A stretch of DNA of 64,000 bases from Alphaproteobacteria bacterium (GTDB lineage: Bacteria; Pseudomonadota; Alphaproteobacteria; Rickettsiales; UBA8987). Location of the stretch: the NCBI GenBank assembly GCA_031426355.1, contig JANPLD010000045.1, positions 11,121 through 75,120 of the forward strand, given 5' to 3'. A program made the position numbers and the translations under genes. Within the stretch, counting starts at the first letter, position 1. Each line of letters starts with the position of its first letter. Below are positions 6,689 through 58,527 of the stretch, piece by piece. Below the pieces are notes generated by a model. The model was not told the origin of the DNA and searched no databases. It was given only the letters and a program-made list of their open reading frames with translations.

Positions 6689-9634
6689 TTAATGAAAATT
6701 GGGGTTTTGACTTCTTTTTACTTCATCGGGATTTTTTCCTAAAGCCAATAAAGAAAAGTTTTTAGCACTTTCCCCTTTAAAGCCTATTCTTTTAGAAACC
6801 GCCTGTATAAGAAGAGTTTCATCAGTATTATATCCCCGCTCCCAACCACTTACTGACACATCGCTTATTCCTTTAACTACTTTTCCTGATCTTTCAAATT
6901 CTAATGATTTTGCAAAATCCACCTGGGTAATATTTGAGCCTGATTGCAAGCCTTCCCTTAGGCGTGCTTCTCTGACTATATCGCCCCATTTCAAAGCAGT
7001 TTTATTTTGCAATATGTCATTGAGCATTTCTTCCGGTGTTCTGATGGCCGGTATTGCTTCCAGCATTAATGCCGTATGATAGGCAAGGGTTTTGTCTGAA
7101 ATAAGATAGCTGACAGTTGCCCATTTTTTCTCCACATTTAAAGGAAATGAGATTTGCTTTTGATATCTTGAGAGGTTTTCTCCTATAGCTCTTATATTGC
7201 TATCTGATAATTCTTTTCCCGATCTATTTAGAAATTCTATAGAATAAGCCCTTAGTGATTCAATATTTTTTAATGATATAAGTTCAGTAAGGAAATTCCT
7301 TGGTAATTGATCTTTAAATTCATTTAATTTTTGTCCAAAATCTGTTTTTTCTTTATCACTTATAATAGTTTGATAATTCAAAATAAGTTTTGCGATCTCT
7401 TTTTCTTCACCTGAATATTTATTTATATCTATGGTGCGGTCTATATTATCAGGATTATTATATTTGAACTCATTTTGCGATTCTTCAACCTTCTCCTTAA
7501 GAAGTTTATCCAACTGTTTTAACGGTTTTTCCTTATTAACAGGATATTGAGAATAAATAAATTCCCGTATTAATTTTTTGTTAAATAGTTTTTTATATTC
7601 AGTTCTTGCTAATAATCTTTCGAAAGTTTCTAATATAGTTTTTAAATTATTAGGTTGCGGTAAAGCTCCTGTAATAACATAATTTTCTGAGCTTAGACCT
7701 CTAAGCTCACGATTAAGTTTTTTATATCCAAGCTGAGTTGCCTCCTTAAGGGCTGCAAACAAATTTTGAACTGTTGAAGGTTCCTGCAATTCAGAAATTA
7801 TAAAGGCTTTCTTATAATCTTCAAAAACTATATCACTAGCTGTATCTGATGCTTGGTTATCTAATTTTATATATTGTTCTTTAGTAGAAACTTTTTCTTT
7901 TACTAGCTTAACCAGGTTCTTTTCCTTTTCTCTTACAGTAGGTTTTGGTCTTTCCTTAGTTAATATTGGCTTTAAAACAGGCTTTTGTACAAGAGCTTTT
8001 AAGAATTGCTTTTTATCTATTTTATTATCTGTCGGAATTGCCAAGAAAATTTTTTCTGCATCTTCAATTTTTAATAAATTATTATTAGCTAAATATGATA
8101 AGGTTGCACTAGGTATATCAATGTTTTTTCTTCCAATAATTTTTAGAATTAAATTAAGCGCAATTTTAGAAGTAATTAATCCCGATTCTGTATCATTTAT
8201 AATAGACTGAATATTTTTTTTGATTTTAAATGAAAAATCATTTGAAAAAATCTCACCTGTTTCTTTCGAAAGTCCGATTACATTAGCAAATGCTAAGCCA
8301 ATTTTTTTTACTGCCTGATGGTGATACATAATTCCATCTGTCACAACTCTGTTTATATAGAAATTTACATGGTTAAAATGAAATTCCTTATCTAAAAAGT
8401 TGTTTATTAATGTATGATAATCAGCATTATTTAAAGCTCTTTGCTCAATATCAATTAAAATTAATTCTTTCGGCATAAATTGATTGTTTAAATAAGCTTT
8501 TTCCAGTCCATTAGGGCTATAAAATTTATGCCTTTGCCTTAATAAAGCTTGCAAAAGGTTTGAATCATCTCTGGTTAGTTGAAATTCCTGACTGATAGCT
8601 AATGATAATTTAAGTGCATTTGCTCTATCTGGAATGACATTATTTTCTTTTAAATAAAATTCCAAATTTCTACTGGGAAAATTATATTTGCGCGAAAATT
8701 CACTTATATTAACTTTCGCAAATATAGAGTTTAATAATGCCCCTATAAAAACTTTTGATTCCTTAAGATTATTTTTTATTTCTATAGATGTTTCTTTTAA
8801 TAAATTATGAACATTAAAATTACTTCTTCCGTAAAAGATATTTCTTAAAATTATATTTTGATTATCAGTTAATGGAAATGTATTTGCGAACTTATTAATT
8901 GTTACACTTTGAATAACTTCTGATTTTTGATTAAAAGAACGCCAGAAACTTCTATGATCTATAGGAAGTAAATCAAAAATTCTCCGATTTCCAAGCCCCC
9001 ACACTATGGATAAGGCAGGGATTAAGCTATGGTAATTAGTAATATTTCTACTTTGAAATTCGTCTAAAACCATACCAAAAGTTGGCATATGATAACAATT
9101 CTTTCCTTTATGAAGAGATGATAGTTTTAAATAAAATTGCCTATCTTTTTCTATAAAACTTTTATCCAGTGGAACAAGAAACTTTTTTGTTCTTAATCTA
9201 TCGTTTTCATTAAATTGAATTTCTCTGAAGTGGAGTTTCATAAATGATTTTTCATTTATGATGCCATAGGCTTCTAATCTATAACTGAAATATTGTGCAA
9301 GGTTATGATCAGGTAGTTCATCTCCTGTTAAAATATTTGTTATTTTAGCTAAACTTATTCTATCTTTTAAACCTATGTTATTCAAAAAGTCAGGTATATT
9401 TTCTGAGTTTAAGTGGTTATATAATTCAAGTAATTGGTCTTTAACTGAAATGCGCTCTTCAGATGACTTGGAATACATGATCCCAAGTCTATCCTGCTTT
9501 CCTTCATCTGTATATTCTTCATAATACTGGCCCTTTCTAAGATCTTCCTGAACAACTTCCTCATATTCGGCAAAAGGGTCTTCCTCATCAAAAAGACTAT
9601 CAAGATATTTCTGCCATTTAAGTTTTTTCTCCAT
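6689..9634 (-). CDS. Large hypothetical protein with C-terminal XRE-type HTH and several degenerate HTH-like segments
   Basis: 981 aa uninterrupted ORF; WGDIVREARLREGL...TQVDFAKSL...SVSGWERG is XRE-like. Confidence 0.6.
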   Translation of the reverse strand: MEKKLKWQKYLDSLFDEEDPFAEYEEVVQEDLRKGQYYEEYTDEGKQDRLGIMYSKSSEERISVKDQLLELYNHLNSENIPDFLNNIGLKDRISLAKITNILTGDELPDHNLAQYFSYRLEAYGIINEKSFMKLHFREIQFNENDRLRTKKFLVPLDKSFIEKDRQFYLKLSSLHKGKNCYHMPTFGMVLDEFQSRNITNYHSLIPALSIVWGLGNRRIFDLLPIDHRSFWRSFNQKSEVIQSVTINKFANTFPLTDNQNIILRNIFYGRSNFNVHNLLKETSIEIKNNLKESKVFIGALLNSIFAKVNISEFSRKYNFPSRNLEFYLKENNVIPDRANALKLSLAISQEFQLTRDDSNLLQALLRQRHKFYSPNGLEKAYLNNQFMPKELILIDIEQRALNNADYHTLINNFLDKEFHFNHVNFYINRVVTDGIMYHHQAVKKIGLAFANVIGLSKETGEIFSNDFSFKIKKNIQSIINDTESGLITSKIALNLILKIIGRKNIDIPSATLSYLANNNLLKIEDAEKIFLAIPTDNKIDKKQFLKALVQKPVLKPILTKERPKPTVREKEKNLVKLVKEKVSTKEQYIKLDNQASDTASDIVFEDYKKAFIISELQEPSTVQNLFAALKEATQLGYKKLNRELRGLSSENYVITGALPQPNNLKTILETFERLLARTEYKKLFNKKLIREFIYSQYPVNKEKPLKQLDKLLKEKVEESQNEFKYNNPDNIDRTIDINKYSGEEKEIAKLILNYQTIISDKEKTDFGQKLNEFKDQLPRNFLTELISLKNIESLRAYSIEFLNRSGKELSDSNIRAIGENLSRYQKQISFPLNVEKKWATVSYLISDKTLAYHTALMLEAIPAIRTPEEMLNDILQNKTALKWGDIVREARLREGLQSGSNITQVDFAKSLEFERSGKVVKGISDVSVSGWERGYNTDETLLIQAVSKRIGFKGESAKNFSLLALGKNPDEVKRSQNPNFH

Positions 9635-17684: not shown

Positions 17685-17729
17685 TGGTGGGATCGAGAGG
17701 ATTCAAACCTCCGGCCTACGGTTTAGGAA
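17685..17729 (-). mobile_element. Site A: 3' half of tRNA-Arg(CCU), allele with CGATCCC acceptor (attR-like)
   Basis: Minus strand TTCCTAAACCGTAGGCCGGAGGTTTGAATCCTCTCGATCCCACCA; no 5' half upstream. Confidence 0.9.
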
Positions 17730-17940: not shown

Positions 17941-18207
17941 TTAATTTCTAATTCTAGTGTTATCTATTTCTATTGCTTTTGGTCTAAGTGGTTCCTGATA
18001 AGTACCTTCTGCCACTCTTTTTGCTATATCCTTTCCTCTTATTGCAACTTCCTCACTAGTTAAGGATATCTCGGGTGGCTCAATATTTATACCTTTATAA
18101 AAGATTATCTTGAAAGAATATAATTCATAAAATTGAAATAAAGCCTTTAAGTATGCAGGATCTTTTTCTCCGTTAGCATATCCACTTGCTTCTGGCTTTT
18201 CTGGCAT
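17941..18207 (-). CDS. Hypothetical protein, possibly C-terminal fragment
   Basis: 88 aa ORF enclosed by a 42-bp direct repeat. Confidence 0.4.
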   Translation of the reverse strand: MPEKPEASGYANGEKDPAYLKALFQFYELYSFKIIFYKGINIEPPEISLTSEEVAIRGKDIAKRVAEGTYQEPLRPKAIEIDNTRIRN

Positions 18208-19585: not shown

Positions 19586-19828
19586 TTATTCCACGACAAT
19601 AAGTCCAGCTACAAATGCCGCAATCCCTTCCGTTATGCCTAGATTTGTAAAATGCGCTAGGGTTAATGCAGGAAACTCCCAAACTGTTACGCCCTTTATT
19701 AATTCTCCAAATAAGGTATCGCGGGCGCTAACCATTTCATTTTGATACTCGCGCATTTTAGGCACCAACTCAGTAGCTATTAATTTTGTAATAGCATCAG
19801 AAACGTTGTCGTTATTTATCTCATCCAT
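19586..19828 (-). pseudogene. Hypothetical protein fragment
   Basis: 80 aa ORF back-to-back with a truncated PLD gene; looks like a C-terminal remnant. Confidence 0.35.
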
Positions 19829-19839
19829 TTCAGCGGCTA

Positions 19840-20067
19840 ATGGATGATGCTGGAATTCCTATCCGCATCAATCGAAAATATTCAATAATGCATAATAAAT
19901 TTCTGGTTATAGATGGCCATACCGTTGAAACAGGAAGCTTCAATTATAGCGCAAATGCGGAGAAACGTAACGCCGAGAATGTAATAGTGATAAGAAATAA
20001 TGCGAATCTGGCTAAAAGATACCTTGAAAATTGGCAGAAATTATGGAATGAAGGCGAGGATTATTAG
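19840..20067 (+). pseudogene. Nuc-like phospholipase D family nuclease, C-terminal half
   Basis: HNKFLVIDGHTVETGSFNYS HKD motif and NAENVIVI; N-terminal half missing. Confidence 0.85.
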
Positions 20068-20093
20068 CTATCTTGAAAAGCTAATGTCAATTC

Positions 20094-20132
20094 GGGGTCG
20101 TAGCTCAGCCGGATAGAGCGGCGGTTTCCTAA
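20094..20132 (+). mobile_element. Site C: 5' half of tRNA-Arg(CCU), GGGGTCG allele (attL-like)
   Basis: GGGGTCGTAGCTCAGCCGGATAGAGCGGCGGTTTCCTAA, then non-tRNA sequence. Confidence 0.9.
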
Positions 20133-20249
20133 TCAGTGAGTCCAGAAAGTTAGGATTTTTGGATTATCCAATAATAATAAAGGCTTATCCTTCACATCAT
20201 CATCACCATATTAGGCAATTTTTCAATTAGTAACTCTATAGTAACTTTT
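20133..20249 (+). repeat. Arm X, diverged copy of 35527-35642 (inverted); TAGTAAC at 20228 and 20239
   Basis: Both start TCAGTGAGTCCA and end TTAGTAACTCTATAGTAACTTTT; many substitutions in between. Confidence 0.9.
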
Positions 20250-20445
20250 GAGATAAGATTTCAAATTAGAGCTTAACTCTATAAGCAGATTATTATGACA
20301 TAATTCTTGCAAAATTTCCTTTAACACGCAAAAGCCACTCATTGATAAATCTGGAGTAATAATATGTTATACCGATAGCTAAGCCATCGTTTTTATAGCA
20401 CAAAAATCACTACGTTTCAATATATTAAGGCACCAAGGTTAAATA

Positions 20446-20460
20446 TTAACCTTTAATTAA
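20446..20460. promoter_or_regulatory. CtrA-type box TTAA-N7-TTAA
   Basis: TTAAcctttaaTTAA upstream of ATG 20497. Confidence 0.4.
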
Positions 20461-20496
20461 TGATTGTGTGCTAACATAATTATATACAATATATTA

Positions 20497-21646
20497 ATGC
20501 AATTAATCATTATGCCAGAAGAGTATAAATATATTTTTGATGACTCGGGAAAGTTTACCAGAATTAGAATTCCTTTAAAAGAAGGAGAAAAGAGCTATGG
20601 GTCTATAGTAATACAAAAGATGGATCTGAAATAACCTGGTTTAATTTTGCTTATCCTAATGATAGGCTACTTATTTTAACTACTGAAGAAATTCAAAACA
20701 AAGAAGAGCCTTATTATTCGCAAGGAATAAAATCCTTTAATGAAACCTTTCCAAAAATAGAATTAGATTATGATAAATTGGAGCATGTCTTTTATACAAA
20801 AATAGAAGTTGTTACGCCTGAATTAGTAGATGCTATGTATATAAATCAAGGACTAGGTAATACGGGGATCTATCAAGAATCCAGAGAAAAATATTATCAT
20901 AAAGCAAATTATGCCAGTAAAGAGTCCAGATCAGGGGAAATGGATTTTATTAATTCTGAAAAATATACAAACTTATCAAAAGATGTTTTTGATAGAAAAG
21001 AAGATGTAAACGAAGATTTTAATTCGCCAAAACTATATGTAACGATAAGTGATAAATATAAATTGGCTCATAATCCAACTAATTTTGGAAACTTCTTATG
21101 GGGAGGAGCAACTCAGGTCTTAGGATTGGGGATGGAGCTATTTATATTGGTTCCAATTATGATGGGTTTCGTAACAATAAAGAATTAGATTCAACAGATG
21201 ATCAATTATCAATTAAGGCTGGAAGAGAATATTTCCAAAGTAAAATTGGCGATAAAGCAGGAACTTTAGGTAATGATGTATTGTTAATAAATAGAGCTCA
21301 GAAAATCTATGCAAACTGTGCGTTTGGTAACTATATAAACAATGGGACTTTAAAAGATCCTAATTATAAAGTTGAAGATCCTGATATGCTGATAAAAAAT
21401 TTTGAACTTGAAAAAATGAACTCAAGTTTGAATGAAGCTATATATGCTTATGAAAGATTAAAAAAGGATAATCCTAAAATGGCAGAATCTCTTAAAGATG
21501 AGATGGGATTTCTCCTAGAGATTACTAAAGATATTAAAAAAAATAAAATAAAACTTGCAGATGTTGTTGATGGAAATTTACTAAATCAACATTATTCACA
21601 AACTAAAATTTTAGAGCAATCTTTAGGGTTAGGGCCTAGTAAATAA
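20497..21646 (+). pseudogene. Doubly frameshifted gene with toxin-44-like NFGNFLWG segment
   Basis: Three successive frames (20497-20634, open frame 20568-21188, 21098-21646); HNPTNFGNFLWGGATQVLGL resembles polymorphic toxin 44 RNase. Confidence 0.5.
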
Positions 21647-21915
21647 TTTAATTTACATTGGTAATTAAAGCCAGCCAGGCTCAAATTGTTAGATTGCAAT
21701 GCAGCATGCATACCTAAAATATGAATTATAAAAGTTAATGAAGTTAAATTTAGCTATATTCCAATTTTTCCTTCAAATACTCTGCAACCTACTAAAGCTC
21801 TACTTAATTAAAGACCACTCTGAATGATGTAAATAAAGTTAAAATTCCTATTTTTCCATGCAACTTAACAGTCCTAGTATTTATTGCTTGCTACGCTTAC
21901 ATGTACTAATAATAT

Positions 21916-22818
21916 ATGTTATATATGAAAACAGGAAAAATACATAACTACAATACAAAAAAAGGTTTTACTCTCGTAGAATTAGCAATAGTACTGGTTA
22001 TAATTGGTTTGCTTGTAGGTGGCGTACTCCAAGGTCAGGAATTGATAAAGCAGGCGCAGATCAGAAGCGTTATTTCTCAGATGTCGGAATATGACACTGC
22101 GGTAAATACCTTCCGTGCAAAATATCAACAGATGCCCGGAGATATAAATCGTGCGGCCGCTTATGGTCTTAATTGTCCCGACATTGGTGCACCATGTACG
22201 GCAGGAACTGAAAACATGTCAGCTTTTGTAAGTGATTTCCCTTTGATTCCAGATGGCTCTCAAGGTAACGGTGATGCAGATGGAAGCTTGGAAACATCTA
22301 ATAATGCTGCGACTAGTAATGCAAGATTTTCTTATTATTCTGGTGAAATAGCAAATTTCTGGGTGCATCTTTCCAATACCTTATTAATAAAAGGTGGTTT
22401 TACGCAAACTGATGATTGTGTAACCTGCGGCGTATCCCCAGAAATAAACTTCCCACCTGCTGCAGTAGGTAAAGGTATGATAGCTCTAACGGAAGGTGGT
22501 CGAATATATTATGTGCTTGGAACCTCAGGTAACTATACTACTGTTGCTTTTGCTGCAGCATCTGGTTCACCTGGAACTCTTGTCACTGATGACCTTACCC
22601 CTGACGAAGCATTCGCATTTGATTCGAAATTGGATGACGGGGCTGCAAAAACAGGTGTAGTACAAACAGTATATAGATGGAATGAGAATCCTCCATACGG
22701 ATTATTTACCCCTGTAACAGGCGGCACCGCAGTTACTGATTGCCATACCACCACTGGTGTATACAATCTTACAAATGATAGCAATTTATGCACACTTAAA
22801 GTTAGAGCTTCAAGCTGA
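21916..22818 (+). CDS. Prepilin-type N-terminal cleavage/methylation protein (pseudopilin-like)
   Basis: KKG|FTLVELAIVLVIIGLLVGGVL class III signal; PGD and D-x-KLDDG motifs. Confidence 0.9.
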   Translation: MLYMKTGKIHNYNTKKGFTLVELAIVLVIIGLLVGGVLQGQELIKQAQIRSVISQMSEYDTAVNTFRAKYQQMPGDINRAAAYGLNCPDIGAPCTAGTENMSAFVSDFPLIPDGSQGNGDADGSLETSNNAATSNARFSYYSGEIANFWVHLSNTLLIKGGFTQTDDCVTCGVSPEINFPPAAVGKGMIALTEGGRIYYVLGTSGNYTTVAFAAASGSPGTLVTDDLTPDEAFAFDSKLDDGAAKTGVVQTVYRWNENPPYGLFTPVTGGTAVTDCHTTTGVYNLTNDSNLCTLKVRASS

Positions 22819-23010
22819 TTATAACTTAATTCCTTCTTTCAGATAATCTGCAACTTTCTGTTGCTGAACGCTCAGGTGCTTAAGGTCTTGTTTAATATAC
22901 CTAGCAGTAACGGTACTTTTTTGCTGGGGGCTGATTTGCTAGCACCTCAATATCGTAGGTGATAACCCTGCGCTGTTGGCATCAGTAGTGTATGTATCCC
23001 TTATTAGCCA
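22819..23010 (-). pseudogene. Tyrosine integrase C-terminal relic 1 (frameshifted)
   Basis: Across two frameshifts: LIRDTYTTDANSAGLSP-YDIEVLANQPPAK-STVTARYIKQDLKHLSVQQQKVADYL; homologous to 24482-24626. Confidence 0.7.
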
Positions 23011-23036
23011 CTAATTATGTAGCAACTTGGACTAGT

Positions 23037-24266
23037 TCAAGATAACTGAGTAGTTAAACCAGCTCTATATTGCACTACCGGACTGGACGTAGGTGTTAGA
23101 TCTCCAATTCTGTCATTAGTTGGCTCTGGTTCACTTAATCCATTACCCATAATTTTTTTTAATTTACTGCTAACTTCATTAAAAGTTCTTTCATCTGCGG
23201 AACGCAACTCCTTGGTAAACTGGTTGAACAATCTGAGATTTTTGTTAAAAGTAGCCTGCGCTTCTCCATCAAGGGGTCTTCCCTGAAGTATATAATTAAG
23301 GTTATCATTCATCATTTGCATACCTTGCATCGCTTCACGAATATCACTTTCATTTTTAGGTGCTTTTTCAGGATTTTCTTCAGGAATTTTTATTTTTGGT
23401 ATTTTTTTATCTGTAATTATTTCAGCAGGCCTAGTTTCTTGAGTAGGTTGAACTTCTGTGGGCTTTTTATCATCGTATATATCTACAAGAGTTATTGGCA
23501 CTTTATCTTTAGTCTTTTCAGGAGTTTTTACTTCTACCACCTCTTCTTTCTTTTCAAATTTTTTTAAAGGTGGAATTTTTACTTTATCAAATTTTAACAT
23601 CTTAAATATTTTCGGGTCATCACTTATGCCAATTTTATTGAATGTAACTGAATAGTTAAATCCCGCATCACCAGCATCCACAATATAAGCCTCGGGAGTT
23701 GGTGTATAAATAATTGAATTTTTGTCAAGAACATCCGACTCAAAGGGTCTCCCAATATAATTGCCTCCAGGACTAAATACGTGTATTTCTGGAACATAAG
23801 GATATTTATTTAATTTATCATCGTATTTTTTGATAAAGAAAATTTTAGACGAATTAGCGGTTATTAATGAATAAAGCTCGTTAAGCGGCTTTGTGTCATA
23901 AGCTGATTTATCATCATTCATTAAGGTACTAAAATAATCAATACTTGGCCAGAACTCTGGATCAATATTAAGACTTGCATACTTTTGCATGTCTGCACCA
24001 TTTGAATTCGTCAGCTCAATAAGCTGGTTTGCGTTAAGTATTTGGTAAGATTTTTTTATTTCCTTGTAGGCTTTAAAATCTTTTTTTAACTGGTTTAAAG
24101 CAAATTGAGCATCATCATCAAATTTTCCATCCTGCTCAATAGCACCACCTTTTTTTCCTTTATAACCGAAAGTATTTAATACATATTGCAGCCTTAATAT
24201 ATCTGCAGTTGTTGTAGATGGATCTGTAAAATCCTTTTTTCTGATTTCATTAAAATATTTTTCCAT
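23037..24266 (-). CDS. Hypothetical protein with N-terminal peptidoglycan-binding-like domain
   Basis: DILRLQYVLNTFGY...DGKFDDDAQFALNQLKKDF resembles PG_binding_1; Pro/Glu/Lys-rich linker. Confidence 0.55.
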   Translation of the reverse strand: MEKYFNEIRKKDFTDPSTTTADILRLQYVLNTFGYKGKKGGAIEQDGKFDDDAQFALNQLKKDFKAYKEIKKSYQILNANQLIELTNSNGADMQKYASLNIDPEFWPSIDYFSTLMNDDKSAYDTKPLNELYSLITANSSKIFFIKKYDDKLNKYPYVPEIHVFSPGGNYIGRPFESDVLDKNSIIYTPTPEAYIVDAGDAGFNYSVTFNKIGISDDPKIFKMLKFDKVKIPPLKKFEKKEEVVEVKTPEKTKDKVPITLVDIYDDKKPTEVQPTQETRPAEIITDKKIPKIKIPEENPEKAPKNESDIREAMQGMQMMNDNLNYILQGRPLDGEAQATFNKNLRLFNQFTKELRSADERTFNEVSSKLKKIMGNGLSEPEPTNDRIGDLTPTSSPVVQYRAGLTTQLS

Positions 24267-24366
24267 AAGACACCCTGTTGCATTTTTGCAAAGATACCAC
24301 CTAACCTTTGGACTTCAAGCGTTATTTTATGATTTCAACACAACCTTAGGTTGTAATAACTTTTAA

Positions 24367-24382
24367 TTAGGAAACCGACGCT
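24367..24382 (-). mobile_element. Site I: 16-nt relic of a tRNA-Arg 5' half ending at the anticodon loop
   Basis: Minus strand AGCGTCGGTTTCCTAA, identical to site G over 16 nt. Confidence 0.7.
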
Positions 24383-24480
24383 GAATATTGCCGGTTGATC
24401 CGAATCGGAATATCAGCATCATCTATAGCCTCAACTGCGGGATAATCCCTCTTGGCATGAGTTTTATGTTCAATTATGAG
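24383..24480 (-). pseudogene. Second PLD/Nuc nuclease relic
   Basis: Translates ...EAIDDADIPIRINRQYS; 12 of 14 residues identical to DDAGIPIRINRKYS of 19840-20067; fused to site I. Confidence 0.8.
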
Positions 24481-24481
24481 C

Positions 24482-24626
24482 TTATATTTTAGTTCTCTCT
24501 TTCAAATAATCGGCAACTTTCTGTTGCTGTACGCTCAGGTGCTTAAGGTCTTGCTTTATGTATCCGGCAGTAACAGTGCTTTTTGCCGGACGGTGATTGG
24601 TTAGCACTTCTATATTGCTCCAGTCC
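24482..24626 (-). pseudogene. Tyrosine integrase C-terminal relic 2
   Basis: NIEVLTNHRPAKSTVTAGYIKQDLKHLSVQQQKVADYLKERTKI*, with the NH...VTxGY catalytic His/Tyr pattern. Confidence 0.75.
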
Positions 24627-24639
24627 TTTTTAACCTCAA

Positions 24640-24658
24640 CCTTACTAGGGCCTTATTT
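24640..24658. repeat. Orphan CCTTACTA arm pair
   Basis: CCTTACTAGGGCCTTATTT, same as the outer end of arm W at 27481. Confidence 0.75.
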
Positions 24659-24692
24659 TTTTCATACTCTTGTCACTAGAATGATATAGATA

Positions 24693-27314: not shown

Positions 27315-27359
27315 TGGTGGGAACGAGATGATTCGAACATCCGGCCTACGGTTTAGGAA
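27315..27359 (-). mobile_element. Site D: 3' half of tRNA-Arg(CCU), CGTTCCC allele (attR-like)
   Basis: Identical to 33133-33177 and 34131-34175, inverted. Confidence 0.92.
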
Positions 27360-27499
27360 AGCCAAGCCTCTGATTTTAAAAGCTTATATGGTCTTTTTAA
27401 ACTGTAACTCCAAACGGAGTTTAAACCAAAAAATCTCCAAATCTTGTTTTATACAATACTAGCCCTTTTTTAAACCGCAACCTTACTAGGGCCTTACTA
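27360..27499. repeat. Arm W; CCTTACTA at 27481 and 27492; diverged inverted copy of 33992-34130
   Basis: CCAAGCCTCTGATTTTAAAAGCTTATATGG...AAACCGCA(A/G)CCTTACTA shared, with scattered substitutions. Confidence 0.92.
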
Positions 27500-27562
27500 A
27501 TTGCAACTGAATTTAAGCTACGAAATATTATCTGCTGAACCTGTTTTGATCAAAATTAAATA

Positions 27563-33100: not shown

Positions 33101-33177
<77 letters not shown>

Positions 33178-33420
33178 TTAAATTAACTCTGGTTGTTTTT
33201 TATATTGAGCTTTTTTATCTAAATTAGATTTCAGTGCGTCACTATATATTTGCTCTGCATTATAAGGCATAAGTAAATCTTTGTTTATTATATCTTCTAA
33301 ATCTTCCTTCGTTATAACCAGAATTCCATGCTTCTCAGCATCTTCTACCTCTGTTTTAACTGCCCCTTTAGATTTTAAAGTAATAATGATAGGCAAAACA
33401 TTGTATTGATTTACATAAAG
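33178..33420 (-). pseudogene. C-terminal fragment of an unrelated (possibly nuclease-like) protein; stop abuts the tRNA CCA
   Basis: LYVNQYNVLPIIITLKSKGAVKTEVEDAEKHGILVITKEDLE, in a different frame from the TIR ORF. Confidence 0.45.
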
Positions 33421-33928
33421 CGAAACCAATTTCTTGTTGCGTCCAAACACTCTCTGAAAAGCCTTGAGTATGTATAGTAATCATTGCATCCATAGTATGC
33501 AGAGCTTTTTCTATTTCGTTTTGCCACTCTCTTGAGGGATTAATGTCTTCGTGTGCAACAAAACCAGATATATAATATGTGGCTAAAGTTTCTTTTAATC
33601 TAACTGCTTTATCTTTATGAATAGCTAAATGGCTTATAAACAAGCGAAAGTTTTTAGATTCTTGCCATATCTCCGGAGGATTAATGCCCTTAATTTCGGA
33701 AGAAAATGTATCTATTTCTAGCTCATTTGCTATAGATAAAAGCTTATTATTATTAGCATTTTTTAATGCTTCTTTAGAATATACCCATTTACTATTATAA
33801 CTTAACGGCCCACTTGGTGTAGTTAAACCAAAACTTTCTAGGAATATATCTATATCACTATAACCATAACGTGCTTGCAATTCACGACCTATTCTATCAA
33901 TTAATTTTAATCTTTGGCTTACCTTCAT
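33368..33928 (-). pseudogene. TIR-domain protein, C-terminally truncated or chimeric
   Basis: FRLFISH, GFVAHEDINPSREWQNEIEKAL, SVWTQQEIGFAL (catalytic Glu); TIR-like sequence ends at ~33420. Confidence 0.78.
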
Positions 33929-33991: not shown

Positions 33992-34130
33992 AAGTAAGGC
34001 CTTAGTAAGGCTGCGGTTTAAAAAGGTGCTGGCCTTGTATAAAAAAAGATTTGGAGATTTTTCGGTTTAACTCCGTTTAGAGCTAGAGTTTAAAAAGGCC
34101 ATATAAGCTTTTAAAATCAGAGGCTTGGTT
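33992..34130. repeat. Arm W copy; AGTAAGG pair within 33992-34010
   Basis: Inverted homolog of 27360-27499. Confidence 0.92.
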
Positions 34131-34175
34131 TTCCTAAACCGTAGGCCGGATGTTCGAATCATCTCGTTCCCACCA
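34131..34175 (+). mobile_element. Site F: 3' half of tRNA-Arg(CCU), CGTTCCC allele (attR-like)
   Basis: TTCCTAAACCGTAGGCCGGATGTTCGAATCATCTCGTTCCCACCA. Confidence 0.92.
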
Positions 34176-34195
34176 TTATGATTTTTAAAATAGTA

Positions 34196-35471: not shown

Positions 35472-35526
35472 GATTAACAAAATAATAGGGATAAAGTATG
35501 ATTTTAAATACCGGAAATACACTATA

Positions 35527-35642
35527 AAAGTTACTATAGAGTTACTAATCAAAAAATTGCCTGATTTTGCGATGATGAGATAAGGAATAAGCCCTTATAA
35601 TGATTGAATAATCTAAAAATCTGAACTTTTTGGACTCACTGA
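35527..35642 (-). repeat. Arm X copy; GTTACTA at 35530 and 35541
   Basis: Inverted homolog of 20133-20249. Confidence 0.9.
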
Positions 35643-35681
<39 letters not shown>

Positions 35682-35738
35682 AATAGATTTGGATTCGGAA
35701 AATATACTAAACTTTTAAAAATGCAATTCTTTAGAAAA

Positions 35739-35830
35739 CCTTACTATAGCCTTACTTTTGGGTTTTCTGTATTGGATTTAAGGCAGAATAATCAGTAAAT
35801 ACAAATTGTTATAAAATTTCAACCCACTTA
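35739..35830 (-). repeat. Arm Z; CCTTACT at 35739 and 35750
   Basis: CCTTACTATAGCCTTACTT. Confidence 0.75.
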
Positions 35831-35869
35831 TTAGGAAACCGCCACTCTATCCAGCTGAGCTACGCCCCG
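35831..35869 (-). mobile_element. Site H: 5' half of tRNA-Arg(CCU), CGGGGCG allele, next to core gene gpsA
   Basis: Minus strand CGGGGCGTAGCTCAGCTGGATAGAGTGGCGGTTTCCTAA. Confidence 0.9.
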
Positions 35870-56917: not shown

Positions 56918-56992
56918 GGCCCCGTTGTCTAGCGGTTAGGACATCGCCCTTTCACGGCGGTAGCACGAGTTCGAATCTCGTCGGGGTCACCA
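56918..56992 (+). tRNA. tRNA-Glu(TTC)
   Basis: GGCCCCG/CGGGGTC acceptor, anticodon arm TCGCC-CTTTCAC-GGCGG, TTCGAAT loop, CCA. Confidence 0.93.
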
Positions 56993-57157: not shown

Positions 57158-57318
57158 TTCAGCATATAGAAAAATTCTTTTATTAAGCCCTTGATTAAGA
57201 TGCCCAAAAAATATATACTTTTTTGTGTAACCATTTGAATTTACACGCTATTTTGTTCATAGGCGTTCATATTTGTTCATGTATGACCGTTTTATTAAAA
57301 ACAAATAAGGAGAATAAT

Positions 57319-58527
57319 ATGAAATATAATCGACTTACACATATTGAGGTAAAAAATGCCAAGCCAGAAGATAAAGACTATAAAATATCTGATGGTAATA
57401 ACCTGTATCTATACGTTATGAGTTCAGGCAGCAAGATCTGGAGGCTCAACTATAGTTTGGATAATAAAAGGAGGCAGGTTCCATTAGGAAAATATCCTGT
57501 TGTCAGTCTTGCGGATGCCAGAGAAAAAACTTTAGAGATTCAGAAATTAGTTAATGATGGAATTGATCCTGTAGATAATAAAAGAAAGGAGAGGCTGGAC
57601 AGGCAGCTTAGCCATGAGAATAACTTTGAAGCCATAGCTAAAGAGTGGCATAAGAACAAAAAACATACATGGCAGCCTAAACATGCCGACGTAATATTAA
57701 ACAGGTTATCAACAAATATATTCCCTATTATTGGCAAAAGGCCGATCAATGAAATAAAGCCTGTTGAGTTGCTGCACGCCATCAGACCTATAGAGGAAGC
57801 TGGTAAACATGAAATGGCGCATAGAATGTTGCAGACGGTAGGGCAGATACTTCGTTATGCTGTAGCATCAGGCAGAACAGACAGAGATGTCTCACAGGAC
57901 TTAAAAGGCGCATTAAAGCCTGTTGTAAGCAAAAACTACGCACATCTTAAAGAGTCGCAACTCTCAGAATTCATCCATAAGCTGAACAGATATGATTCTG
58001 AGTATAAAGGCAATTTATTAACTAAGCATGGCTTCCAGTTGCTTATATTAACATTTGTAAGAGGTGGTGAACTGCGCGGTGCTAAATGGGAAGAATTTGA
58101 TTTTGATAAAAAACAATGGCGCATACCTGCTGAAAGAATGAAAATGAATGAACAGCATATTGTTCCTCTATCTAATCAAAGCATTACCCTGCTTAAGAAA
58201 ATTCATAAGATAACAGGTAATAGCTATGGTAACTTAGTTTTCCCAAGTTTCAAAAACCCCAGAAAGACTCTGAGCGAAAATACTTTTCTAAGAGCCATTG
58301 ATATAATGGGATATAAGGGAATAACTACAGGTCATGGCTTCCGTTCAACGGCATCTACTATTTTAAATGAAAATGGTTTCAGGGCGGATATTATTGAAAG
58401 GCAGTTAGCCCATTGTGAACGTGATCAGGTTCGTGCCGCTTATAACCACGCTCAATATTTACCGGAACGCACACAGATGATGCAATGGTGGGCAGATCAT
58501 CTGGAGAAAACCGGGATGAAAGTTTGA
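57319..58527 (+). CDS. P4-family tyrosine integrase with N-terminal arm-binding domain
   Basis: DGNNLYLYV...KIWRLNY, LGKYP.VSLADAR, TFVRGGELRGA, HGFRSTAST, QLAH, AAYNHAQY; AAGGAG before ATG 57319. Confidence 0.95.
   Translation: MKYNRLTHIEVKNAKPEDKDYKISDGNNLYLYVMSSGSKIWRLNYSLDNKRRQVPLGKYPVVSLADAREKTLEIQKLVNDGIDPVDNKRKERLDRQLSHENNFEAIAKEWHKNKKHTWQPKHADVILNRLSTNIFPIIGKRPINEIKPVELLHAIRPIEEAGKHEMAHRMLQTVGQILRYAVASGRTDRDVSQDLKGALKPVVSKNYAHLKESQLSEFIHKLNRYDSEYKGNLLTKHGFQLLILTFVRGGELRGAKWEEFDFDKKQWRIPAERMKMNEQHIVPLSNQSITLLKKIHKITGNSYGNLVFPSFKNPRKTLSENTFLRAIDIMGYKGITTGHGFRSTASTILNENGFRADIIERQLAHCERDQVRAAYNHAQYLPERTQMMQWWADHLEKTGMKV

Follow-up and report, generated by a model that had tools for sequence, protein, structure and literature searches.

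We favour, with moderate confidence, the interpretation that the integrase, PLD nuclease and tRNA fragments described here, which lie in a 64,000-nucleotide stretch of DNA (the window) from an uncultured Rickettsiales bacterium, are debris without function at a hotspot of integration into tRNA-Arg(CCU). The relics point to a clade of integrases whose small, primase-bearing islands appear to use tRNA-replacing integration at tRNA-Arg genes.

Two integrase relics were identified on the minus strand. Relic 1 (24482-24616) consists of codons 348-391 and the stop codon (24482-24484); in tblastn, positions 24485-24616 aligned at 82% identity (E 4e-18) with residues 348-391 of the G017 integrase, which is intact and 397 aa long, and just the segment bearing the catalytic Tyr (VTAGY) is kept. 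Relic 2 (22819-23004), which the first-pass annotation had correctly placed at 22819-23010, consists of codons ~331-391 and the stop, with one frameshift. Positions 22822-23004 aligned with residues 331-391 of the same integrase (62% identity, E 2e-16), and the stop (22819-22821) abuts that of a convergent pilin-like gene (21916-22818). The relics are 84% identical to each other over 103 nt and represent the last 44 and 61 codons, respectively, of ~397. Both retain the nucleophile Tyr motif (VTAGY/VTARY) and the homology of the catalytic C-terminus to tyrosine recombinases; they are genuine tyrosine-recombinase remains of the DUF4102/P4-like clade. Their 3΄ ends fall exactly at the stop codon, with homology gone at most 3 nt beyond it. 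The rest of the integrase (a complete PF00589 and the N-terminal PF13356) was absent from the window (tblastn) and from the assembly, and no AlpA, primase, integrase N-terminus or cargo of the G017 and L022 islands was found in the window. Because the whole assembly contained neither an intact integrase of the relic clade nor an intact PLD, activity here is unlikely; the relics are pseudogene debris, probably without function. An independent Logan contig from the source run covers 21675-24623 with zero differences, and relic 2 and PLD copy c are therefore not artefacts of the MAG assembly.

PLD copy b (19780-20067, plus strand) retains ~95 C-terminal codons of a gene for a Nuc-like PLD endonuclease, including an ORF of 75 aa (19840-20067). 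Its homology reaches back to ~19780-19795, and the sequence upstream of 19840 is degenerate. Copy b matches positions 66-132 of the 132 in Pfam PLDc_2 (E 2.8e-14), with the HKD motif present as HNKFLVID, lacks the N-terminal ~80 codons and the signal peptide, and is 54-72% identical in tblastn to intact PLDs of relatives. As had been described for this diverged paralog, its stop lies 26 nt before a 5΄ half of tRNA-Arg(CCU) (20094-20132, plus strand; ‘GGGGTCG’ allele), which ends in the anticodon loop TTCCTAA at an attL-type junction; the junction string consists of the PLD 3΄ end, the 26-nt spacer and GGGGTCGTAGCTCAGC. This 5΄ half shares 91% identity with the intact tRNA (33101-33177) and sits in a 156-nt repeat, the second copy of which is at 35526-35681. 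The P΄ arm of a second kind of element follows (20133-20249, plus strand), with AGTTACTA-type arm repeats at 20221-20249.

PLD copy c (24382-24501, minus strand) contains PLD codons ~70-108, without the HKD motif, and matches residues ~70-108 of intact PLDs (tblastn against the G010 PLD, E 1e-5). It is 80% identical to copy b over 45 nt and, relative to it, has a ~231-nt deletion that fuses codon ~108 to tRNA nt 23, so that the string AGCGTCGGTTTCCTAA (24382-24367) stands directly after it. This 16-nt tRNA-Arg(CCU) 5΄-half remnant (24367-24382, minus strand) covers tRNA nt 23-38 including the anticodon loop, matches the 5΄ half at 35643-35680 at 16/16 positions and is followed by unrelated DNA. 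The two copies start at similar codons (~80 in b and ~70 in c), and neither has a full PLDc_2 domain with HxK(x)4D, copy b being partial with the motif kept and copy c having lost it. Since they are 95- and 40-codon fragments without an N-terminus, both are, judging from their sequences, almost certainly inactive.

The sequence features reported by the first-pass annotation are thus all present at the coordinates given, and far beyond chance. It had further stated that the row of integrase, PLD and 5΄ half occurs twice; this holds for the order of PLD and 5΄ half and for the integrase 3΄ end, whereas the full row was found only once (24616-24367). The adjacency of PLD and tRNA 5΄ half is real, has two instances and, with 116 PLD-homolog loci compared, was found in the source genome only.

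Upstream of relic 1 lies a P-type arm pair (24613-24660, minus strand; AAGGCCCTAGTAAGG + TTGAGGTTAAAAAGG, the pair itself at 24627-24660), a remnant of an attR without its spacer, core and 3΄ half. The pair aligns with the attR P arms at sites d and f in the window and in the relatives G017, L057 and L022, and the homology to attR ends at ~24613. Because a P-type arm in this orientation is reversed relative to a native arm-integrase pair, the junction between the arm and relic 1 is a scar. The compact row 24660-24367 would then be composed of four unrelated scraps, joined by deletions and at least one rearrangement, a history that is shown in part: 34-48 nt of a P arm, codons 348-391 of the integrase, codons ~70-108 of PLD and nt 23-38 of the tRNA. 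The layout at copy c could not be derived by deletions alone from any observed architecture.

Intact homologs of the relic integrase (52-83% identity) were found in related Rickettsiales and other alphaproteobacterial MAGs. In line with the earlier expectation they are recombinases, with both PF13356 and PF00589, and nearly all loci with sufficient flank are at a tRNA-Arg gene (CCU in G017, L022, L057 and L058; UCU in L060 and L023; CCG in L148). L149 is an exception, with a tRNA-Lys nearby; in L059 a T-arm match of unconfirmed Arg identity lies directly upstream of the integrase, and further contigs are too short to judge tRNA linkage. The islands are 7-10 kb long and share a module of integrase, ~210-aa ORF, AlpA (HTH_17) and Prim-Pol/primase. 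They split the host tRNA-Arg in the anticodon loop via a short core of 8-18 nt (~9 nt in G017 and ~18 nt in L058), and the host halves stand 7-10 kb apart. Both attL and attR are readable in G017, L022 and L058, each as one tRNA half joined to arm DNA; attachment is inside the tRNA gene at a short common core, and regeneration of the split tRNA at one junction, as in the classical Islander/Williams model, is absent from these three islands. A complete, element-borne tRNA-Arg is present in L022, L058, G017, L060 and L148; in five cases such a tRNA lies 16-60 nt behind the P΄ arm pair and just within attL, and in L022 and L058 it differs in sequence from the host halves, which co-vary. The attL sides of L060 and L148 have the same order as those of the other three: 5΄ half, core, ~75 nt, arm pair and complete tRNA. 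A model suggested by G017, in which elements carry a 5΄ half only, was ruled out by the matching 3΄ halves that were found. Integrase and element tRNA share orientation in G017 and L057. L023, a distant relative (39% identity), has a tRNA-Arg 22 nt beyond the end of the integrase, which reads straight toward it, and a displaced 5΄ half lies upstream. An IMG/VR search with the integrase returned two matches only, at 41% identity, and thus gave no evidence that the islands are recognised viral satellites.

These loci bear directly on the model of the first-pass annotation, in which the right end of the founding element was a contiguous row of integrase, Nuc-like PLD and tRNA 5΄ half, the element supplied the 5΄ half together with a promoter, and copies b and c are deleted copies of that end. 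The model accounts for the common order and orientation in copy c, for the succession of PLD and 5΄ half in two diverged copies, for the similar PLD truncation points and for the exact 3΄ end kept by both integrase relics; the arrangement in L023 also speaks for it. However, none of the 14 intact integrase loci (243 kb) contains a PLD gene. Where the model places the nuclease and tRNA after the integrase, intact elements have the ~210-aa ORF, AlpA and primase, and G017, L022 and L058 bring a complete tRNA-Arg while both host halves stay split, contrary to the proposed supply of a 5΄ half. The wrong-facing arm pair before relic 1 and the lack of an integrase relic upstream of copy b are further difficulties. 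At PLD-homolog loci, moreover, neither tRNA-Arg(CCU), nor a 5΄ half, nor a relic-clade integrase was found beside the gene (0/116 loci; 29 + 7 + 80, with one metagenome scan, queried with the PLD protein). Of the linkages by which the model was to be judged, that of the integrase to tRNA-Arg was therefore recovered, whereas that of PLD failed to appear. We regard the model as unlikely, and the claim that these elements have a Nuc-like PLD nuclease as their signature gene is not supported and should not be carried forward.

Intact PLD homologs are ~170-180 aa long, with a single HKD and a signal peptide. The closest of these genes travel as cargo on classical islands inserted at tRNA-Cys, -Glu, -Met and -Leu, whose integrase is a different one and is found at a distance of 3-6 kb; among the closest loci (seven fetched, five read for ORFs), four of the five have a tRNA and a non-clade integrase or primase 3-6 kb off. 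The integrase of the G010 island is 22% identical to the relic clade and 53% identical to that of the window's own tRNA-Glu island. Both observations would suit an origin of PLD in an unrelated, classical tRNA-restoring island (compare G010 at tRNA-Glu and G146 at tRNA-Cys) that came to lie beside an island-borne tRNA-Arg, in which case integrase relic and PLD were never in one element and their contact is a deletion scar. In such islands, however, PLD is 4 kb from the tRNA rather than 26 nt and never beside tRNA-Arg(CCU), and the spacing at copy b resembles a native gene-tRNA junction, which leaves this origin improbable too, about as much as the contiguous row above. PLD is also common in the order (66/301 genomes), as would be expected if PLD followed by tRNA-Arg(CCU) were the ancestral chromosomal context of the host tRNA, later duplicated by rearrangement. 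This we consider highly improbable: neither of the two same-genus genomes has any PLD, PLD and tRNA-Arg(CCU) are on separate contigs in G010, and the 5΄ half abutting gpsA has no PLD upstream.

That 5΄ half (35831-35868, minus strand), decayed and displaced beside the housekeeping gene gpsA, belongs to an 18-kb array in which the sole intact tRNA-Arg(CCU) is at 33101-33177 (plus strand, ARAGORN). Next come a P΄ arm pair (35737-35759) and then another 5΄ half (35643-35680), so that the layout from 35868 to 35643 is the attL layout of the relatives L022, L058, L148 and L060. In all, the window contains five 5΄ halves and four 3΄ halves in both orientations, and its integration sites have just TTTCCTAA in common. 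Several insertion and inversion histories fit the array, and none was singled out. Synteny with the two same-genus genomes yielded no empty site; these regions are too rearranged, with tRNA-Arg(CCU), gpsA-purK and pilin genes on separate contigs or reordered, although the same comparison identifies the pilin paralogs and gpsA as core genes. A Pfam search of neighbouring ORFs (340, 409, 401, 88 and 182 aa) matched zero families and thus did not help to assign element ownership.

We propose that the tRNA brought by one island becomes a target for the next element; displaced 5΄ and 3΄ halves would therefore accumulate as insertions are nested. The PLD fragments are what is left of a gene for a secreted Nuc-like endonuclease that lay 26 bp ahead of a tRNA-Arg(CCU) carried by an island (GGGGTCG allele). 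A later insertion would have split this tRNA, leaving the attL-type junctions between PLD and 5΄ half; at copy b, the later arrival would have been the second element type with AGTTACTA arms. The fragments would accordingly be ordinary decay debris rather than a preserved ancestral gene order, a reading that we place slightly above even. It is favoured by the conserved module and the split host tRNA with a distinct element tRNA, by the attL layout common to L060, L148 and the window, by the occurrence of PLD as island cargo elsewhere with a different integrase, by the P-type arm at copy c with homology lost at ~24613, and by the lack of further integrase, AlpA or primase pieces in the window. 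Several observations count against it. Integrase, PLD and 5΄ half are co-oriented in copy c, as a contiguous ancestral unit would give; the PLD start codons are similar; both relics end exactly at the stop, which would suit a native boundary there better than deletion ends placed at random; and the reading of the L023 integrase toward tRNA-Arg and the co-orientation in G017 and L057 point the same way. The join across the repeat at 20099-20132 comes from the MAG assembly alone, the Logan contig covering 21675-24623, and this also weighs against decay debris. The parent element of the PLD-to-tRNA unit was found nowhere, and we therefore infer its architecture. That the PLD gene and a relic-clade integrase were once in the same element has, in our estimate, about one third of the probability.

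It is doubtful, and less probable than either rival origin of PLD from an island, that the order of integrase stop, PLD codons from 70 onward, 26 nt and tRNA-Arg(CCU) is the native, propagated end of an unsampled element type. If so, the integrase would read, like that of L023, toward the tRNA that its element carries; its exact 3΄ end would be functional, for example as a tRNA promoter or regulatory signal or as an element boundary; and the window would document that tRNA-replacing islands have a second architecture, in which nested insertions target the islands themselves.

With respect to known systems, we take the PLD fragments to be of the type of the Nuc-type PLD endonucleases (pKM101/Salmonella Nuc and Rickettsia Pld; Pfam PLDc_2). 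Their homologs are likewise small, with a single HKD, ~170-180 aa and a signal peptide, whereas the window copies have kept 95 and 40 codons and lack the N-terminus. The integrases resemble P4-like/DUF4102 integrases in combining PF13356 with PF00589 and in the motif that surrounds the catalytic Tyr near the C-terminus, and the islands resemble int-AlpA-primase islands and satellites in their adjacent AlpA-like HTH_17 and Prim-Pol/VapE-type primase genes. In classical P4-like islands the target tRNA regains its 3΄ part, and the rebuilt gene has the integrase as its neighbour; in contrast, both host halves stay split in relic-clade islands. The Islander-type analysis of tRNA island arrays (PMC4383910) likewise uses a model in which the island rebuilds its target, and only one kind of tRNA fragment therefore accumulates. 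As in such arrays, the displaced tRNA fragments here are former island ends from several generations of insertion; unlike in them, 5΄ halves and 3΄ halves alike have built up, in both orientations, as follows from tRNA-replacing integration at this locus. Island-mapping tools that assume a rebuilt target will mis-call such islands.

To our knowledge, tRNA-replacing integration has been described experimentally so far for actinobacteriophages only. In Fionnbharth/K4 and cluster L phages it is known as tRNA-dependent lysogeny (Guerrero-Bustamante and Hatfull 2024, PMC10865867), in which, as in the intact relatives, a tyrosine integrase recombines via a short core in a host tRNA gene. The carriers here differ in being small int-AlpA-primase islands of Rickettsiales and other alphaproteobacteria rather than temperate phages; they insert into the anticodon loop of tRNA-Arg and have their own tRNA directly behind the P΄ arm, and the window itself contains dead remains only. 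With the role of the element tRNA read from sequence, the intact islands appear to match the logic of tRNA-dependent lysogeny.

The window (contig C45:11121-75120 of a 2.25-Mb MAG with 136 contigs), whose relatives carry the label uncultured Rickettsiales, contains a single intact tRNA-Arg(CCU), detected by ARAGORN at 33101-33177 on the plus strand. Around this gene, repeat and pattern searches found copies of its halves, each broken in the anticodon loop TTCCTAA. The 5' halves were located at 20094-20132 (site b, plus strand), 24367-24382 (site c, minus strand, 16 nt only), 35643-35680 (site g, minus strand) and 35831-35868 (site h, minus strand, adjoining gpsA), and the 3' halves at 17685-17729 (site a, minus strand), 27315-27360 (site d, minus strand) and 34130-34178 (site f, plus strand). 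The arm-type repeat pairs flanking the halves were of two kinds, type 1 (GTAAGG-N5-GTAAGGTT) and type 2 (AGTTACTA). A TIR-domain ORF (33368-33928; PF13676, E 1e-9) is enclosed by the intact tRNA and a direct repeat of its 3' half (33132-33180 and 34130-34178, 100% identical, 998 bp apart). The gpsA-side 5' half is missing one base of the acceptor stem (GGGG-CG) and differs at other positions, which fits an old, displaced half that selection no longer maintains.

The first-pass annotation proposed that the founding elements carried an integrase, a Nuc-like PLD nuclease and a tRNA 5' half, and were later shrunk by deletions. All of the sequence features that it listed are present; of its interpretation, the linkage between integrase and tRNA-Arg was supported, whereas the role of the nuclease as signature gene and the idea that the element supplied the 5' half alone were not. 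Both integrase 3'-end fragments are on the minus strand: relic 1 (24485-24616) is translated as DWSNIEVLTNHRPAKSTVTAGYIKQDLKHLSVQQQKVADYLKERTKI and a stop codon, and relic 2 (22822-23004), with one frameshift, as ...RDTYTTDANSAGLSP / DIEVLANQPPAKK / STVTARYIKQDLKHLSVQQQKVADYLKEGIKL and a stop codon. Compared with the intact 397-aa integrase of the relative genome G017, to which relic 1 is 82-83% identical, the matches were 82% (E 4e-18) for relic 1 and 62% (E 2e-16) for relic 2; a search of the 2.25-Mb MAG found no intact copy of this integrase. Relic 2 is bounded on one side by a 409-aa ORF and on the other by the stop codon of a core pilin-like gene. Because an independently assembled contig (Logan, k=31) of the run containing the window covers 21675-24623 with zero differences, relic 2, the 409-aa ORF and the PLD fragment beside site c (copy c) are not MAG-assembly artefacts. 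The pilin-like gene (N_methyl motif, 21916-22818) is single copy, whereas the relative G002 (L055 13578-16111) has three tandem paralogs approximately 3 kb from gpsA; in the window the gene is inverted and 13 kb away from gpsA, and the island array thus broke this core neighbourhood.

The protein database contained 515 homologs of the integrase below 1e-30, with Arm-DNA-bind_3 and Phage_integrase domains, and we surveyed 14 intact loci. In nearly all of them the integrase is followed by a ~210-aa ORF, an HTH_17/AlpA-like protein, a Prim-Pol/VapE-type primase and variable cargo. A tRNA-Arg gene was present at almost all loci with enough flank, with the anticodon CCU (G017 and the fetched loci L022, L057 and L058), UCU (L060 and L023) or CCG (L148). 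L059 has a T-arm match immediately upstream of the integrase, a candidate tRNA-Arg; L149 has no tRNA-Arg and only a tRNA-Lys nearby, no tRNA was seen in L150, L020 and L021, and the contigs of G050 (389-aa integrase) and L019 were too short to judge linkage.

At the loci with both junctions readable (G017, L022 and L058), the intact islands carry a complete tRNA-Arg and leave the host halves split, contrary to the proposal of an element bearing just a 5' half. In L058, the host 5' half (GGGGTCG..., ~18030-18068) is separated by 9.3 kb from its matching 3' half (...CGATCCCGCCA, ~8700-8745), which is directly upstream of the integrase, and behind the displaced 5' half are ~75 nt, an arm pair and a complete tRNA-Arg(CCU) of differing sequence (GGTCCCG.../...CGGGATC). 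L022 has the same layout, and there too the host halves co-vary between themselves rather than with the tRNA of the element; in G017 the host halves are 9.4 kb apart with a complete tRNA within the island, and L060 and L148 share this structure at attL. The form of the other junction, attR, is constant: from the integrase start, ~100-270 nt lead to an arm pair with TTGAGGTTTAAAAAGG, then ~105 nt with TTTAAAA motifs, the core and the 3' half. The common core spans just 8-18 nt, and so the tRNA is rebuilt at neither junction. In the window, attR-type junctions occur at sites d and f, and the array ends on the right with the exact attL layout of intact relatives (h, a P' arm pair at 35737-35759, then g). 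Because the element-borne tRNA is a target too, nested insertion would explain the accumulation of both 5' and 3' halves.

The P arm pair and the core are separated by ~105 nt in which, even in distant relatives, (G)TTTAAAA(A) motifs are conserved, four or five in number and spaced roughly 20-30 nt apart (window 27361-27501 and 33993-34129; L018 7151-7290; L057 1540-1680); these are candidate sites for a bending protein or excisionase. In G017 (L018 7105-7150, 15259-15335 and 16596-16634), the island tRNA-Arg(CCU) is inverted relative to the split host halves and 100% identical to both (39/39 and 46/46 nt); this identity could reflect homogenisation or an invertible segment, and if the inverted cores recombined, 1.3 kb with a 349-aa ORF would be flipped and the tRNA halves swapped. 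A minimal form occurs in a Phycisphaeraceae MAG (L023 9809-11431), in which a displaced tRNA-Arg(UCU) 5' half, 150 nt, an integrase (39% identical), 22 nt and a complete tRNA-Arg(UCU) follow one another; ~110 nt upstream of both tRNA copies, overlapping the integrase 3' end, are duplicated, which suggests serial replacement.

Both PLD genes are truncated. Copy b (19840-20067) matches PLDc_2 positions 66-132 (E 2.8e-14), keeps HNKFLVID and has its stop codon 26 nt before 5' half b; copy c (24382-24501) corresponds to intact-PLD residues ~70-108 (E 1e-5) and runs directly into AGCGTCGGTTTCCTAA. Of 301 genomes of the order, 66 carry a Nuc-like PLD gene (~170-200 aa with a signal peptide), which is absent from both genomes of the same genus. 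Neither tRNA-Arg(CCU) nor a 5' half was found at 29 PLD loci (±1.5 kb), at the seven closest (56-72% identity, ±10 kb), which also lack a relic-clade integrase, or at 80 further metagenome loci (52-76% identity), which lack a close integrase relative, the sole match being 25% identical (L071). The 14 integrase loci (243 kb), in turn, contain no PLD gene. The adjacency of PLD and tRNA-Arg is so far unique to this genome. The ORFs were read at five of the seven closest loci, and in four of these the PLD is cargo of a classical island, at tRNA-Cys (G146), tRNA-Glu (G010) or tRNA-Met and tRNA-Leu (G023); a primase or a P4-like integrase of another kind is 3-6 kb from the PLD. The first-pass guess that the nuclease is island cargo is plausible, but no evidence ties it to the element type of the relic integrase. 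The G010 integrase shares 22% identity with the relic clade and 53% with an intact 434-aa P4-type integrase in the window (57223-58527), which follows tRNA-Glu(UUC) (56918-56992) as a classical island start.

The arrangement at copy b resembles a native gene-tRNA junction, with a stop codon, 26 nt and tRNA nucleotide 1, similar to L057, where a reverse-transcriptase gene ends 68 nt before the element tRNA; the join over the repeat 20099-20132 lacks an independent spanning contig, a minor caveat. Its tRNA is the GGGGTCG allele, with its partner 3' half at site a (CGATCCC), and was probably split by a type-2 element, because AGTTACTA arms come after b. Copy c shows this adjacency minus ~231 nt, deleted between PLD codon ~108 and tRNA nucleotide 23. 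There, PLD homology begins at codon ~70 and its start overlaps the integrase stop, and a P-type arm pair precedes the integrase relic, with homology to attR sites ending at ~24613. All intact elements have their integrase across the P arms and directed away from them, and the arm-integrase contact at copy c therefore cannot be native; most simply, the arm pair is what is left of the attR of a nearby element, joined through a deletion to integrase codon 348. Alternatively, integrase, truncated PLD and tRNA may have been propagated as a unit, a version of the first-pass model: both relics terminate at the stop codon with similarity gone within 3 nt, both PLD fragments start near codon 70-80 (the sequence upstream of copy b being too degenerate to fix the exact point), and the L023 integrase runs directly into tRNA-Arg with a displaced 5' half upstream. 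We consider such a unit unlikely. The integrase and PLD relics are decayed and almost certainly inactive.

The more interesting result is outside the original claim: the relic integrases belong to a clade of small primase islands, which break up tRNA-Arg and carry a tRNA to replace it. This integration logic has been published as tRNA-dependent lysogeny of actinobacteriophages (PMC10865867), which matches the split host tRNA and the element-borne complete tRNA of these islands. The mechanism is already described in phages, and the integrase clade adds a new member or variant.
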